From positions 224,001-288,000 of the forward strand of contig CAWDVR010000004.1 of NCBI GenBank assembly GCA_963805975.1: 64,000 bases of DNA, in the 5' to 3' direction. Both the position numbers and the translations under genes were made by a program. This DNA is from an uncultured Acidobacteriota bacterium. GTDB taxonomy: Bacteria; Acidobacteriota; Thermoanaerobaculia; Multivoradales; SZUA-115. The notes below the pieces were generated by a model, which did no database searches, was not told the origin of the DNA, and saw nothing but the letters and a program-made list of their open reading frames with translations. Below, piece by piece: positions 11,010 to 16,093 of the stretch (positions are counted from its first letter, which is position 1; every line of letters starts with the position of its first letter).

Positions 11010-11084
11010 GCGAAGAAGAGCGTAGCACGCGGCTCGAGGCAGCCGAGAGTCGCAAGTAGGCTAGGTGCCTGCTACTCTTCGAGC

Positions 11085-11273
11085 GTGAAGGTGGGCGAGA
11101 TTCTGCGGTTGCTCCAAGGCGATGGCTGGTATCTGGTCGCTACGCGAGGAAGCCATCGGCAGTTCAAGCACGCGAGTAAGCCAGGTCGGGTGACCGTTCC
11201 CGGCAAGCCCAGCGACGACCTGGCACCCGGTACATTGAATAGCATCTACAAGCAAGCTGGTCTCAAGAGGTGA
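11085..11273 (+). CDS. hicA: HicA-family toxin
   Basis: From GTG 11085: MKVGEILRLLQGDGWYLVATRGSHRQFKHASKPGRVTVP...PGTLNSIYKQAGL, with the GSH catalytic motif. Confidence 0.92.
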   Translation: MKVGEILRLLQGDGWYLVATRGSHRQFKHASKPGRVTVPGKPSDDLAPGTLNSIYKQAGLKR

Positions 11274-11278
11274 TCTCC

Positions 11279-11491
11279 ATGCGCTACGCCATCGTCATCG
11301 AGAAGGCAGAGGGTAACTACTCGGCCTATGCTCCCGATCTTCCCGGTTGCGTCGCCACGGGCTCGACGATCGCAGAGGTCGAAGCCGAGATGCGGGAAGC
11401 CATCGTGTTTCACGTCGAGGGCCTGCGGGAGGACGGCCTGCCCGTGCCCTCTCCCATGAGCCGTGTCGAGTACGTCGAAGTCGCAGCCTAG
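11279..11491 (+). CDS. hicB: HicB-family antitoxin (short, no C-terminal DNA-binding domain)
   Basis: MRYAIVIEKAEGNYSAYAPDLPGCVATGSTIAEVEAEMREAI. Confidence 0.92.
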   Translation: MRYAIVIEKAEGNYSAYAPDLPGCVATGSTIAEVEAEMREAIVFHVEGLREDGLPVPSPMSRVEYVEVAA

Positions 11492-11567
11492 GCGTGGAAA
11501 TCAATTCGGACGCCGGTACCGGGTGCTCGGCAGTGCCGCGCCGGTCGAACCATACGAGGATGCCCGT

Positions 11568-12188
11568 ATGAGCAGCCATGAGGTCTCGGACGTCGTGATC
11601 GACCTCTCGCACTACAACGAGGTCACGAGCTTTTCGGAGGCCAAGGCCGGGGGGATCGTCGGCGTCATCCACAAGGCGACCCAGGGCACGAGCGGGGTCG
11701 ATCCCACCTACGCGAGCCGCCGCCCGCAGGCGCTGGCGGCCGGCCTCTGGTGGGGTGCGTACCACTTCGGCACCGGCGACGACGTCGTGGCGCAGGCGCA
11801 GCACTTCCTCTCCACGGTGAACCCCGGCCCGCAGGATCTGCTGGCGCTGGATTTCGAGGGCGATGGCAACGACACGATGACGCTCGAGCAAGCCGAGCAG
11901 TTCGTGAGCGCCGTCTACCAGCAGACGGGCCGCTATCCCGGCCTCTACTCAGGCTCGCTCGCCGGCAACGACCTCGCCAACAACCCCAGCACGGTCCTCG
12001 CTAACTGCTGGTTCTGGCGCGCCGAGTACGGCGTGTCGTCCCCCGTCGTGCCGTCCACTTGGCCCACCTGGACGATGTGGCAGTACACGAGCGGCGGCAC
12101 GGCACCGGGGATCGGCGGGGCCTGCGATCGAGATCAGTTCAACGGCAGCCTCGACGCCCTGGCCCTGCTCTGGGGCACTGCCGGCTGA
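11568..12188 (+). CDS. Glycoside hydrolase family 25 muramidase (lysozyme)
   Basis: Motifs IDLSHY, HKATQG, GAYHF, LDFE (DxE), WQYT and CDRD. No obvious signal peptide. Confidence 0.9.
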   Translation: MSSHEVSDVVIDLSHYNEVTSFSEAKAGGIVGVIHKATQGTSGVDPTYASRRPQALAAGLWWGAYHFGTGDDVVAQAQHFLSTVNPGPQDLLALDFEGDGNDTMTLEQAEQFVSAVYQQTGRYPGLYSGSLAGNDLANNPSTVLANCWFWRAEYGVSSPVVPSTWPTWTMWQYTSGGTAPGIGGACDRDQFNGSLDALALLWGTAG

Positions 12189-12194
12189 CGAGCC

Positions 12195-13760
12195 TTACCG
12201 CAACAGCCGCGGCAGTGCTTCTCGCACTTCCTCCGTCGTCATCCCGAGCTTCCCCGCAGCCGCCACCAGTGCCTCGAGGTCCACCGGGTAGAGGCCGGCG
12301 CGAGCCGGGTCGGCGAGGCCGGCAATGTTGCGCGGCTCGATCGCCTGGCTGATCCAGCGCGAGAAAGCCTCGACGTCCGGCTCAGGTGCCTCGAGCTGGC
12401 GGACGGCCTCCGCGAGCACGCCCGAAACCAGCGCATCGCGGCAGCCGAAGAAGCCTTCCCAGGCCCAGTCCCTGGCCTCGGGCGCGAGGCGGCGGGATGC
12501 CTCGGTGAAGCTCACGAAGGCGAAGTAGAGCATCGCGTACGCCTCGAAGAGCTGGAAGTCCGCCATCGTCCGGTAGGCGCCGGAGACCAGGCGGTCCACA
12601 GCGTCCGCCTCTTCGGCGAGGAGAGCTTCGTAGCGCGCCAGCCCCGCGGCCGAGGGCAGGCCGGACGCGAAGAGGCTTCCCACCCGCTCGATGCCCGCCA
12701 AGCTCCAGGCGATGCCGGTCGAGAACAGCGGGTCGGTGAAGGCGAAGGCGCTGGGCAGCAGCAGCCAGCGCTCGCCGGCAGCCCGCGACAGCCGGTGCTG
12801 GAGGCGGGGCACGGCGCGCACGGGGAAGAGCGGCTCGGAAGGCGCGAACTGGCGGCCGATCGACGGGTAGCGCGCGAGGAGCCGCTCCCAGAGCGCCGCG
12901 GGGTCGGCCAGGCCCTGCTCCAGGAGCTGGCGCGCCTCCGGTTTCCGGCGGTCGAGCATGAAACCGGCGCTCACCACGCCGTGGTCGAAGCCCAGCACGT
13001 ACATCCAACCCAGGTCGAGCAAGTGGTGGAGAGCCGCCTTGTCGTCCGGGTAGGGGCCGGGCGGAAGGGCCACGCCTTCGCGCTCCGCCACGGCGGCGAA
13101 GTCCAAGGCGCCGGAGAAGTGGCTGTAGACCAGACCGGCGTCCACCGTGATGCGCTCTGGTGCCGGTGCGATGGGGAGGGCCCGGGCGAGGAAGCCGCCG
13201 GCGCCCGAGGCGTCGATCACGAAGCCGGCCGCGACCTCGAGCCGCCGGCCCTGCCGCTCACCGCCGAGGCTCACCCCCGTCGCGCCGATCTCCACTCGGT
13301 CGAGCGCCGTCTCGTCGAGGTAGACGGCCCCTGCCTCGACCGCCCGGTCGAGGAGGAAGTGGTCCACGTCGGCGCGCAACCAGTGCGTATCGGAGATGCC
13401 GTCGTGCGGGCTCGCCGCCACCAGCAGACGCTCGTTCGCGGCTTCGTGAAACGAGCGGCCGGGCCGATGCCCGAAGAAGCTGAAGCCACGCTTCAAGCCG
13501 CGGCGCACCTGCGGCAGGCGCTCCATCCAGCGCCCGTAGGCCGAGAGGGCGTGAAGGTCTTCCAGGCCGTAGCGCGCGGCGAGCGCGTCGAGCGCGATGG
13601 CGGCGAGCGGCGTCGAGGACTCGCCGATCGCGAAGCGCGGGTGCCTGCCGCGTTCGAGGAGCGCCACGCGATAGCCCTGCGCGAGCAGCACGCGCGCCGC
13701 GATCGAGCCGGCGAAGCCGGAGCCGACGATCGCCACGTCGCAGGCGAGGCTCTCGCTCAT
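12195..13760 (-). CDS. Flavin-dependent halogenase-like oxidoreductase
   Basis: FAD motif GSGFAG, IGES, LKRGF (catalytic-Lys position), GWMYVL (WxWxIP variant) and FTDPLFSTG (FxxPxxSxG). ATGA overlap with the rSAM gene. Confidence 0.82.
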   Translation of the reverse strand: MSESLACDVAIVGSGFAGSIAARVLLAQGYRVALLERGRHPRFAIGESSTPLAAIALDALAARYGLEDLHALSAYGRWMERLPQVRRGLKRGFSFFGHRPGRSFHEAANERLLVAASPHDGISDTHWLRADVDHFLLDRAVEAGAVYLDETALDRVEIGATGVSLGGERQGRRLEVAAGFVIDASGAGGFLARALPIAPAPERITVDAGLVYSHFSGALDFAAVAEREGVALPPGPYPDDKAALHHLLDLGWMYVLGFDHGVVSAGFMLDRRKPEARQLLEQGLADPAALWERLLARYPSIGRQFAPSEPLFPVRAVPRLQHRLSRAAGERWLLLPSAFAFTDPLFSTGIAWSLAGIERVGSLFASGLPSAAGLARYEALLAEEADAVDRLVSGAYRTMADFQLFEAYAMLYFAFVSFTEASRRLAPEARDWAWEGFFGCRDALVSGVLAEAVRQLEAPEPDVEAFSRWISQAIEPRNIAGLADPARAGLYPVDLEALVAAAGKLGMTTEEVREALPRLLR

Positions 13761-14716
13761 GGCCTGGAGCCCCCACCGCAGGCGATGCAGGCCACGCGAG
13801 CCTCTGCCGTGCCCGAGAGGTTGAGGCGCGCGAGCCGTGCCCGGCGCGCGCCGGCGCACTCCGGGCAGCACGCGAAGCGCTCGAGGTCCCAGAGGTCCGC
13901 GCTCACCACGCCACCGTGGAGGGCGAGGCAGGCGTCGAGCGCGTCCTCCAGGTCCGCGAGCGACGGCGGCGTGAAGTGACCCTGGCGCTCCAGCTCTTCC
14001 AGCGCCCCGTTGCCGCCTCGTACGGGGATCAGCGAAACGCTCGCCGCGCCCTGCTCGAAGGCGTGCTCGGCCGAGCGCACGGCCCAGGCCACGGACTCGG
14101 CCGCAGGCACGAAGGGCGTGCCCACGAGCACGAAGGCGCGAAGCCCCAGGCCCGCGTTGCGCAGAAGTGCCGCGGCGCGGTCGAAGTCCTCGATCGTCAT
14201 CGCCTTGCCCAGCTGCGGAAGGGCCTGCGGATGGATCGTTTCGAGCCCGATCGCCACTTCGAGCCGGCCGTCGAGCCGCTCCCCGAAGGCGAGCGCCCGC
14301 CGGCCAACGAGCCGCGCGTGGCTCTCGACGACCGTGCGGAGAAACGGCCGGGCGAGCGCCGCCAGCGCGGCGTCGTCTTCCGGCGGCACGGCCCGCGGCT
14401 CAAAGAAGTTGCTCGCGTTGTAGAGCTTGAGGAGAGTGCCGCCGGGGTCCGGGGCCCCGAGCTCCGCGAGCCCGGCCTCGACCTGGGCCGGCAGGGCGCC
14501 CGCCGGCGTGGGGCCGTCCAGAGTGTGCTGCCAGAGGTCGCAGAACACGCAGGTGAACGGGCACTCGGCGCCCGCCAGGAAGAGCGTCGCGGCGGGCACC
14601 ACACCGTGGTCCGCCGTGCGCTCCTCTTCGAGCAGCGCGCCGAGCGGCCGGAAGGGATCGACGAAAGGCTTCGCCGGGCGCAGGGCGCGGACGTCGGGTT
14701 CGGCCGTCGCCGGCAT
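13757..14716 (-). CDS. Radical SAM protein, RaSEA/Elp3-like (TIGR01210-like)
   Basis: CPFTCVFC, KLYNASNFF, LEVAIGLET, GHFTPPSL, and C-terminal CPEC and CIAC. TGATG overlap with the upstream gene. Confidence 0.85.
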   Translation of the reverse strand: MPATAEPDVRALRPAKPFVDPFRPLGALLEEERTADHGVVPAATLFLAGAECPFTCVFCDLWQHTLDGPTPAGALPAQVEAGLAELGAPDPGGTLLKLYNASNFFEPRAVPPEDDAALAALARPFLRTVVESHARLVGRRALAFGERLDGRLEVAIGLETIHPQALPQLGKAMTIEDFDRAAALLRNAGLGLRAFVLVGTPFVPAAESVAWAVRSAEHAFEQGAASVSLIPVRGGNGALEELERQGHFTPPSLADLEDALDACLALHGGVVSADLWDLERFACCPECAGARRARLARLNLSGTAEARVACIACGGGSRP

Positions 14717-16056
14717 CAGGCGGCCGGGCGGTAGAGATCCAGGAAGTGGCGGCGGTACGCCTCGGCGTCCTGCCCCAGCCGCCCCATGAAGACCGCGCCC
14801 GGCAGCGCGCCGTGCTGGAAGCGCCGCTTGGGGAAGACGGGCATGTCGAGCCCGGTCCAATGCCGGAGACCGCGGCGGACGATCTCGCCCTTCAAGGCGT
14901 AGAGGCGCTCATGGTCTCCTGCCGCCAGCTCGGCGAAGGGGATGGCCTCGGCCACCGCGATCACCGCCGGTCGCGTGTAGGGGGAGAAGCCCAGGAAGCC
15001 GTGGCGGGCGAGCGGCGCCGAGGTGCGCACCGTGCCGCGCGAGAGGCCGCCGCTGTAGGTCAGCGAGTGCTTGATCGCCTCCACCCCCCAGCCCTCCTGG
15101 TAGAGCATGCGGTTGTTCACCACGCTCCGGATGGTCAGCTCCGGGTTCTCCTCGATCGGGTAGTCCTTCAGGTTCTCGTCTCCTCCGTCGCCGTCGGCCA
15201 GGTGGCGCCAGGCCGGGTAGCGGCGCCGGATGCCGCCGAGGAGCGCCAGCGCCACGGCCGCGCACTCGACGTCGAGCGGCTTGTAGTCCTCGATCACCTC
15301 GACCGCCGCCAGCGGGTCGACCTCGCCGGCGCCGGCCTCGATCACCTCGCCCAGCATCTCGAGGTCGAGCCGCGAGAGGAACTCCCGCGCCTGGGCCAGG
15401 TCCTCGCCGCCGCCGTCCACGGCGAGCGTGAAGGCCTTGAGCCGCACCGGGCTCTGCCCCAGGTCGAGGAGGGTGCGATAGACGGCGAGGAGCACGGCAC
15501 CGCTGTCGATGCCGCCCGAGAACAGCACGCCGATCGGCTCCTCGGGGCCCACGGCCGAGAGCCAGGCGCGGGTCTCTTCGAGGAGCGCCCCCACGTAGCG
15601 GCGCCCGATCTCGTCGAGGTCCGGCGCCAGCACTCCGCGCGGCGGGTCGAAGAAGCGGCGGTAGGTGGGGTTGGGGTCCGGGCAGCCCACCAGGCGCAGG
15701 TTCGTCACGTGGTGGGCCGGCGCCATGCGCGTGTAGCTGGGGTGGAACTGGCCGCCGTGCCCCTCGGCCTCGAGGCAGCGGCGGATCTCGTCGATGCGCT
15801 CGGCCACCACCAGCATGGGCCCCGCGGCTTCCTTGGCCAGGAAGTAGCGCAGCGGCCGGTCCAGGCTCCGCGCCAGGGCCACGCGCTCGCCGTCGCGGGC
15901 CATCAGGGCGAACGACCCCTGGATGCCGAGCACCGCGGCCGGGTCGTCGTCCAGCAGGCGCCGGCGCGCTTCGTCCACGGAGAGGTTGAGGATCTGCTGG
16001 CGGCCGGGGTCGACGAGGTCGATGACGCGGGCGATGGGGCGGTGTGGAGTCAGCAT
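14716..16056 (-). CDS. Asparagine-synthetase-like ATP pyrophosphatase / amide ligase lacking the N-terminal catalytic Cys
   Basis: PP-loop LFSGGIDS, plus DGDGGDENL, YALKGEIVR and PKRRFQHG. Truncated Ntn-like N-terminus (GSFALM...ALARSL..PLRY). Confidence 0.82.
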   Translation of the reverse strand: MLTPHRPIARVIDLVDPGRQQILNLSVDEARRRLLDDDPAAVLGIQGSFALMARDGERVALARSLDRPLRYFLAKEAAGPMLVVAERIDEIRRCLEAEGHGGQFHPSYTRMAPAHHVTNLRLVGCPDPNPTYRRFFDPPRGVLAPDLDEIGRRYVGALLEETRAWLSAVGPEEPIGVLFSGGIDSGAVLLAVYRTLLDLGQSPVRLKAFTLAVDGGGEDLAQAREFLSRLDLEMLGEVIEAGAGEVDPLAAVEVIEDYKPLDVECAAVALALLGGIRRRYPAWRHLADGDGGDENLKDYPIEENPELTIRSVVNNRMLYQEGWGVEAIKHSLTYSGGLSRGTVRTSAPLARHGFLGFSPYTRPAVIAVAEAIPFAELAAGDHERLYALKGEIVRRGLRHWTGLDMPVFPKRRFQHGALPGAVFMGRLGQDAEAYRRHFLDLYRPAA

Positions 16057-16093
16057 GGTGGAATTCTAGCCTCAGAGAGGACGCACTCCGGCC

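Follow-up and report, generated by a model that had tools for sequence, protein, structure and literature searches.

Three co-inherited genes for a ligase, a radical SAM enzyme and a halogenase-type flavoprotein in Acidobacteriota and Planctomycetota, with a genomic tie to CRTAC1 propeller genes

A 64,000-nucleotide stretch of DNA from an uncultured Acidobacteriota bacterium (hereafter, the window) carries three overlapping genes, encoding an ATP-dependent amide-ligase, a radical S-adenosylmethionine (SAM) enzyme and a flavin-dependent halogenase-type protein, which together constitute one inherited unit. We tentatively propose that their products may carry out a ligation, a radical C-N cleavage and an aromatic halogenation, yielding a small molecule for the propeller and cytochrome systems of the cell envelope. 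Gene structure, co-inheritance, folds, catalytic residues and a genomic tie to CRTAC1/ASPIC-UnbV propeller genes were observed, and the chemistry is proposed by analogy. The CRTAC1 tie is the strongest contextual clue, and was absent from an earlier interpretation of the same DNA made from its letters (the sequence-only reading). No description of the trio was found in a literature search that left most subscription papers outside its reach; the literature on RaSEA and on archaeosine in bacteria held nothing on it in the titles and passages available, nor did the accessible parts of PMC3174227, PMC7694415 and PMC10760148.

The genome carrying the window (G000; 5.36 Mb, 96% complete) has as its closest named relative a Thermoanaerobaculia metagenome-assembled genome, with protein identities of 80-85%. 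Among 251 Acidobacteriota genomes the ligase was present in 22, and the radical SAM enzyme, at a family-level threshold of E < 1e-40, in the identical 22; the flavoprotein (threshold E < 1e-150) was found in 19, all within these 22. These tallies include one unpublished genome (G023), without which 22 becomes 21 and 19 becomes 18. Seventeen further Acidobacteriota genomes gave weak radical SAM matches only (E ≥ 2e-23). In Planctomycetota, the same six of 151 genomes held all three genes, partly unlinked in three of them, and one further genome had a weak radical SAM match. Two planctomycete genomes with all three genes, G310 and G327, are single contigs. Across both phyla the flavoprotein accompanied the ligase and radical SAM enzyme in 25 of 28 genomes and occurred nowhere else at family level. 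The sequence-only reading had considered the three genes likely to form one unit and had asked for conservation of the triad elsewhere; the trio is indeed conserved as a unit. Ligase and radical SAM enzyme form the core, with the flavoprotein as a usual but dispensable member.

At the level of individual loci, the ligase adjoined the radical SAM gene by which genome loci had been found in 39 of 43 cases, and 28 of the 43 had the flavoprotein in the flank that was fetched. Of the four loci lacking the ligase, two were followed further, and each of these genomes proved to encode ligase and flavoprotein elsewhere. In metagenome loci, tblastn matched the radical SAM enzyme in 10/12 and the flavoprotein in 8/12; in one additional locus (L095) a radical SAM-like gene starts at the contig end. 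The trio is single-copy, and its three proteins show correlated pairwise distances (rho 0.66-0.78), as shared ancestry alone can yield. A ligase tree was built on 35 rows, comprising that of the window, 22 of the 48 remaining family rows and 12 divergent proteins. It placed Acidobacteriota and Gemmatimonadota intermingled in a supported clade, a topology consistent with lateral transfer. No relative was found in viral contigs with the A1, A5 or A7 patterns, and in tblastn searches the ligase was absent from plasmids and the radical SAM enzyme from phages; plasmids yielded two distant Streptomyces radical SAM proteins (28-30% identity). A decayed copy was seen at L041:6127-7522, in which the ligase has lost an internal segment and the radical SAM gene is truncated, with no flavoprotein in the flank; it has its multihaem-TPR and CRTAC1 neighbours in common with the intact locus L004. 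One genome (L053:4281-6194) has, some 1.6-3.5 kb upstream of its trio, a gene of the MbnB/TglH/ChrH family with a partner gene and a gene for a short Cys-containing peptide, a set not seen in the other loci.

Profile searches proposed in the sequence-only reading gave 32 bits for the ligase against PF00733, 56 bits for the radical SAM enzyme against TIGR01210 (RaSEA; E 3.5e-15, cut-off 212.15) and 44.6 bits for the flavoprotein against PF04820. A single-sequence search of the PDB with the ligase returned no match at E ≤ 1. Its structure model (pLDDT 82) matched along the full length beta-lactam synthetase 1mc1 (Z 24.4, root-mean-square deviation 3.2, 359 residues aligned) and, in a tie with it, Escherichia coli AsnB 1ct9 (Z 23.4, deviation 3.1, 349 aligned), followed by CarA (Z 21.1), at identities of 12-20%. 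The protein begins MLTPHR and lacks Cys1, as had been claimed from the letters. Since the alignment begins only at residue 44 of beta-lactam synthetase and residue 42 of E. coli AsnB, the model indicates that this is more than a point change and that the glutaminase strand is missing; neither the N-terminal Cys strand nor the NGEIYN segment, both present in the AsnB genes of G000, was found in the ligase. The PP-loop and the lack of Cys1 are shared with beta-lactam synthetase and CarA. Unlike those enzymes, the ligase is short of some 40 further N-terminal residues, carries a 45-residue insert (residues 292-336) and an invariant Cys125, and has no beta-lactam or asparagine pathway context. Beta-lactam synthetase and CarA are marked by a Tyr-Glu dyad and by carboxyethyl-arginine or carbapenem pathway genes, and no such pathway genes recurred among the neighbours of the trio. 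The insert is among the most conserved parts of the ligase and is modelled at low confidence; it might be a lid ordered by ligand.

Many homologues are named 'asparagine synthase' in databases, where the ligase has at least 8000 clusters. The ligase shares with AsnB (TIGR01536) the PP-loop and the acidic motif (D290, D293, E294), and its DGDGGDE (DGxGGDE) motif, K410 and R412 are conserved. Were it an ammonia-dependent asparagine synthetase with incidental neighbours, these labels and motifs would be accounted for, but that explanation is highly improbable. The TIGR01536 score of 23 bits falls short of the 267-bit cut-off, and neither an N-terminal Cys nor an intact N-terminal nucleophile glutaminase domain is present. 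In asparagine synthetase the Arg of ETYDITTVR binds aspartate. The column of this pocket Arg holds Glu in 40 and Gln in 9 of the 49 family members, so a plain asparagine synthetase is unlikely as judged from the alignment. The ligase was moreover accompanied by the radical SAM enzyme in 28/28 sampled genomes, and G000 possesses other AsnB genes, with four further PF00733 genes at E < 1e-32. Full-length relatives of about 28-41% identity (P0129, P0134, P0151, P0163, P0165, P0174, P0189, P0205, P0218 and P0274-P0281) were also recovered, the first nine of which do not have Cys125. Three distant relatives carry the names Ca. Berkelbacteria, Ca. Magasanikbacteria and Nanoarchaeota, and of two metagenome scans, the one with the A5 pattern recovered no locus for these divergent ligases and the one with P0129 as query returned main-family loci only.

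For the radical SAM enzyme (model pLDDT 95), the best fold match was Elp3 5l7l (E 3e-8, TM 0.52), and a single-sequence search of the PDB gave no match at E ≤ 1. RaSEA was the top family for all 49 members scanned (best E among members 1.6e-38), followed by TIGR01212 (MnmL/YtqA), matched by 19/49 (best E 6e-7). KLYNASNFF, LEVAIGLET and GHFTPPSL are all present, and the C-terminal Cys pairs C284/C287/C310/C313 are kept in 42, 46, 42 and 39 of 49 members, respectively. No recognition or SPASM extension was found in the 319 residues. The resemblance to RaSEA pointed out earlier is thus real at the level of the nearest family, but the score amounts to a quarter of the cut-off, and the ArcS domain PF17884 was not found in G000, although three archaeal controls scored positive. 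According to the passages available, RaSEA converts preQ0-Lys to archaeosine (G+) in a complex with ArcS, which attaches the lysine (PMC11298593), and MnmL substitutes for MnmC1 in the cmnm5-to-nm5 step, in which cmnm5s2U loses its glycine-derived unit (10.64898/2026.05.18.725915), and falls in an Elongator-like megacluster (10.1101/2023.12.21.572861). As described in these passages, the closest two characterised families each remove an amino-acid adduct while its nitrogen stays in place, and by analogy we propose C-N cleavage for the trio enzyme. Distant RaSEA-like proteins were also observed beside an ATP-grasp gene (L046:7735-8928), beside an amidinotransferase-fold gene (L077:1028-2386) and, on a Streptomyces plasmid, in a cluster that also encodes P450, SHMT, glycosyltransferase and carbamoyltransferase (L065:8905-10020).

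The trio is most like the euryarchaeal ArcS-RaSEA system in its logic. Both have a CxxxCxxC enzyme of the Elp3-like group, partnered by an enzyme that might attach an amino acid, as ArcS does with lysine in the part of PMC11298593 available. With a score below the cut-off and no ArcS found, the trio is nonetheless not a member: its partner is an ATP-dependent AsnB-fold ligase rather than a TGT-like ArcS, and it is bacterial, with a halogenase-type third gene and no sign of tRNA binding. MnmL/YtqA/YhcC and Elp3 occupy the same radical SAM neighbourhood, and MnmL, too, takes off a carbon unit that stems from an amino acid while the nitrogen stays behind; the scores are weak, though, and the trio enzyme has neither a KAT domain nor a link to tRNA or mnm genes. 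A nucleoside or tRNA had been among the substrates proposed in the sequence-only reading. A bacterial counterpart of ArcS-RaSEA acting on tRNA or nucleosides would fit the nearest named relatives (RaSEA, MnmL/YtqA and Elp3), all of which act on tRNA, as well as the single-copy genes and the strong conservation of the ligase (65% mean column identity). Beyond the missing ArcS domain, this option is weakened by the acidity of all three proteins (median net charge of ligase, radical SAM enzyme and flavoprotein -11, -7 and -8) and by Pfam and NCBIfam scans of them, which found no RNA-binding domain. The trio is patchily distributed, tRNA-modification genes are not among its recurring neighbours, and PltM-type pockets accept free phenols. 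We regard it as very unlikely.

The flavoprotein matched best, among solved structures, the free-substrate phenolic halogenases CtcP (tetracycline 7-halogenase; E 6.5e-41) and PltM (E 1.3e-39; 2e-79 in a profile search). Its E47, K90 and F93 are invariant (44/44) and align with E49, K87 and F90 of PltM, residues which, in the passages of PMC6424973 available, line the phloroglucinol (phenol) pocket, with K87A being inactive. The glycine motif GxGxxG (GSGFAG) is kept in 42-43 of 44 members, one row being incomplete, and in FxxPxxSxG (FTDPLFSTG) the four residues are kept in 38, 42, 44 and 44 of 44, respectively. A further halogenase motif is WxWxIP, of which the first W is retained in 44/44, while the second is W in 19 and Y in 25 and Ile-Pro is replaced by Leu-x. 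By sequence, the protein agrees with a PltM-type halogenase save for this one altered motif, and the halogenase hallmarks read from the window earlier stand. With the family profile, members score at E < 1e-135 and other PltM-like genes at about 1e-75 to 1e-80, which marks a PltM/CtcP-like subfamily of its own with a predicted halogenase role; CtcP and PltM differ further in that the trio has no polyketide cluster.

Alternatively, the flavoprotein may be a hydroxylase or another oxidoreductase, with the trio building or salvaging a non-halogenated redox cofactor. We give this a slim chance: the altered WxWxIP-type motif, the occurrence of the pair without flavoprotein in four genomes searched, and the SsuA-type importers, amidase and AhpD-like genes that accompany the CRTAC1 cassette described below speak for it, but the catalytic Lys and the phenol-pocket residues are invariant, and every one of the closest solved relatives is a halogenase.

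Beyond lineage-specific synteny, the recurring neighbours of the trio were CRTAC1/ASPIC-UnbV propellers, TPR-multihaem c554-type proteins and a TPR-CRTAC1/CRTAC1/RnfD-like cassette, the last accompanied by SsuA-type importer, TonB receptor-like, AhpD-like and amino-acid permease genes. Of 86 loci, 15 had a CRTAC1-type gene no more than 5 kb away, compared to 1.5 expected at the density of G000 (10 genes); at triple this density about 4.5 loci would be expected, and the 86 loci are not independent. Partners differed, being multihaem-TPR in L004, L020, L036, L037 and L041 and RnfD-like in L056-L079, with L045 linked as well, and linked loci were spread over three or more distinct regions of the ligase tree. 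Genome content agreed with this pattern. At least four PF07593 genes were present in 22/22 pair-positive and 78/229 other Acidobacteriota, in 13/13 and 1/11 genomes, respectively, within the class of the window, and in 6/6 trio-positive and 54/145 other Planctomycetota (the threshold of four was set after the Acidobacteriota counts were known, and kinship inflates the p-values). Many Acidobacteriota and Planctomycetota carry from 4 to more than 20 CRTAC1 family copies, and trio carriers made up 22 of the 100 CRTAC1-rich Acidobacteriota sampled. A close RnfD-like orthologue (E < 1e-50) was found in 14/251 genomes, nine of them with the trio and seven of these within 6 kb of it. In L060 and L078 the trio genes continue by overlap or abutment into the TPR-CRTAC1, CRTAC1 and RnfD-like cassette; G000 has its own RnfD-like cassette on another contig (C1:687155-698866, 57-64% identity).

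The same cassette was also observed in L059, L060, L064, L078, L079, L084, L085 and L099-L106, with YtkA-like, NapH-like ferredoxin, SsuA-type ABC importer, metal-binding domain, AhpD-like and amino-acid permease genes as its variable part, and with a formamidase-like gene in two genomes without the trio. Beside it, in L102 (18267-18827), two adjoining short open reading frames resemble halves of an AhpD-like protein, for which selenocysteine read-through is possible. A strict pattern of making or importing the product was rejected, as the SsuA-type importer occurs both with the trio (G095, G139, G168, G196, G204) and without it (G132, G178). CRTAC1/UnbV and the RnfD-like UnbU (E4/E5) reportedly act in enediyne core formation, which is said to pass through a diiodotetrayne intermediate. 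The neighbour cassette, with its PF07593 propellers and PF03116 membrane protein, resembles such enediyne core cassettes, except that no enediyne polyketide synthase was seen in the fetched loci. It also recalls other bacteria in which CRTAC1 genes stand between and beside genes for hydrazine-synthase homologues, as far as the accessible part of PMC12758564 goes.

The trio could instead make a stand-alone halogenated metabolite, such as a signal or a secondary metabolite, with a radical SAM enzyme of other chemistry and a CRTAC1 tie owed to shared lifestyle and one or two island insertions. For Pseudomonas, PltM produces chlorophloroglucinol as a signal, according to the passages of PMC6424973 available. 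Most loci lie amid unrelated housekeeping genes, 71 of 86, the window among them, are without a CRTAC1 neighbour up to 5 kb away, and the phylum mixing of the ligase tree fits lateral transfer. We consider this explanation rather unlikely, given that the nesting within CRTAC1-rich genomes is seen in two phyla and again inside a single class, that the linkage recurs with differing CRTAC1 partners, and that no exporter or regulator recurs beside the trio.

QhpD and QhpG, which mature quinohaemoprotein amine dehydrogenase, are the model for another explanation, in which the trio would modify CRTAC1 residues or a small peptide before export. The flavoprotein does match the QhpG, GoxB and LodB models weakly (E 5e-13 to 4e-6, far below cut-off) but is far nearer to the free-phenol halogenases PltM and CtcP. 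In G000, what we take to be a lasso-peptide-like cluster (C4:514249-517149) places a Cys-less AsnB-like gene beside a lasso-type pair of PqqD-like and B2-like genes; lasso peptide cyclases differ from the trio ligase in their setting, as RRE, peptidase and precursor genes are absent from the window and do not recur in the loci. A short peptide gene of about 75-95 codons, with tandem heptads holding Asn-Gln at a fixed position, occurs near trio genes at L058:6399-6740(-) and L080:4016-4288(-), and again at L084:12335-12802(+), in each case in the CRTAC1/RnfD-like/SsuA-importer island. The one such gene scanned had no Pfam or NCBIfam match; its heptads resemble anion-binding coiled coils, a precursor peptide being the alternative. 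As a universal precursor this peptide was rejected, since it is confined to 3 of 85 loci, one of them without the trio, and was not found in G000. The radical SAM enzyme has none of the extensions mentioned above, and the window leaves no room for a precursor gene. Overall, a maturase role appears improbable.

On the tentative reading favoured here, the three enzymes would form a short cytoplasmic pathway, although both substrates and step order are guesses. With ATP, the ligase would adenylate a carboxylic acid and acylate the organic amine of an amino acid, as suggested by beta-lactam synthetase and by the AsnB fold lacking a glutaminase; the amine would probably come from a basic amino acid, because the ligase pocket is acidic. 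The radical SAM enzyme, by analogy with RaSEA and MnmL, would abstract a hydrogen next to the nitrogen and break the C-N bond of the amino acid, so that the nitrogen stays on the product. The flavoprotein, by analogy with PltM, would halogenate an electron-rich aromatic ring of phenol or aniline type. That the product is used by envelope CRTAC1/ASPIC-UnbV proteins with cytochrome or membrane partners is a guess, which agrees with the siting of CRTAC1 genes between hydrazine-synthase homologues in the accessible part of PMC12758564. A more specific version, in which ATP ligation and radical C-N cleavage build an undescribed halogenated cofactor or mediator of CRTAC1 propellers with few makers and many users, as for pyrroloquinoline quinone, is unlikely though worth stating. 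Ligation followed by radical C-N cleavage is a logic so far known, to our knowledge, only from tRNA modification.

Several observations weigh against the proposed pathway. Because of the 71 unlinked loci and the 78 CRTAC1-rich Acidobacteriota without the trio, the CRTAC1 tie may in part be a matter of lifestyle or genome size, and the six RnfD-like-cassette loci in the ligase tree form one clade and are thus kin rather than independent cases. The family-level flavoprotein was not found in pair-positive G115, G229, G011 and G254, which are fragmented assemblies, and the altered WxWxIP motif means that the protein may have hydroxylase or other flavin chemistry. The fold of the radical SAM enzyme leaves its chemistry unfixed, as its RaSEA score is far below the cut-off and distant RaSEA-like bacterial enzymes occur in unrelated settings (L046, L065, L077). 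Finally, to make a simple amide with two enzymes and radical chemistry seems expensive, since AsnB-type amidotransferases are available for the purpose.

The positions of the trio and of its diagnostic residues in the window are collected in Table 1. The three genes and all the motifs quoted for them earlier are present, with overlaps of TGATG (gene 1 stop and gene 2 start, 14718-14714) and ATGA (genes 2 and 3, 13760-13757).

Table 1. Coordinates of the trio, its putative promoter element and key residues in the window
Feature	Position	Strand	Description
Gene 1, ATP-dependent amide-ligase	14716..16056	-	446 aa; AsnB/beta-lactam synthetase fold with truncated, glutaminase-less N-terminal domain
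Gene 2, radical SAM enzyme	13757..14716	-	319 aa; Elp3/RaSEA/MnmL neighbourhood, C-terminal Cys pairs
Gene 3, flavin-dependent halogenase-type protein	12195..13760	-	521 aa; PltM/CtcP group
TAGAAT, candidate -10 box of a leaderless transcript	16063..16068	-	6 nt ahead of first ATG; putative
Ligase PP-loop SGGIDS, residues 180-185	15502..15519	-	S180, G181, G182, D184 and S185 invariant
Ligase Glu264	15265..15267	-	Column of the human asparagine synthetase Arg (ETYDITTVR); profile alignment to 9b6c/8sue/6gq3
Ligase Cys125 in GCPDP motif	15682..15684	-	Invariant (49/49) in operon-linked family
Radical SAM CxxxCxxC (C52, C56, C59)	14540..14563	-	Each kept in 49/49
Flavoprotein Lys90 (LKRG)	13491..13493	-	Aligned to PltM catalytic Lys87; kept in 44/44

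The -10 box read upstream of gene 1 held up in part. TAGAAT recurs at identical spacing in the closest relative (L001), and boxes of this kind precede 260 of 4264 predicted G000 genes compared to 71 of 10,822 ATGs on contig C1, which makes it a plausible promoter of the G000 trio. A sigma-70 scan of the upstream region found no -35/-10 pair, though, and a TANNNT box 5-8 nt ahead of the start was present in just 5 of 59 homologous loci, the majority of which have a Shine-Dalgarno-like site; a conserved leaderless promoter was therefore rejected as a family trait. The intergenic region folded no better than shuffled sequences (z -0.75).

A divergent pnt operon lies 160 bp upstream, and a convergent gene ends at 12188. 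As the sequence-only reading had stated, no non-ribosomal peptide or polyketide synthase, carrier protein or precursor gene adjoins the trio in the window. Between tmk and the trio (11034-12188), converging on the latter, are genes that we take for a HicA/HicB-like pair and for a GH25-like muramidase, identities for which an NCBIfam scan gave no confirmation; in L013 and L054 the trio stands directly beside tmk/holB-like genes. Elsewhere in the window, the segment 57008-59758 has a lower GC content (0.62-0.63), was probably acquired and holds a 916-aa gene that resembles one for a DNA methyltransferase.

Taken as a whole, the trio is compact, strictly co-inherited and abundant among phyla that dominate soil and the sea, and with three genes in 3.9 kb the proposed pathway is small enough for direct testing. 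If the proposed chemistry is true, C-N cleavage of the RaSEA/MnmL type would extend beyond tRNA, the flavoproteins would make up a new subfamily of free-substrate halogenases, and the trio would offer a first handle on the needs of bacterial CRTAC1/UnbV proteins.

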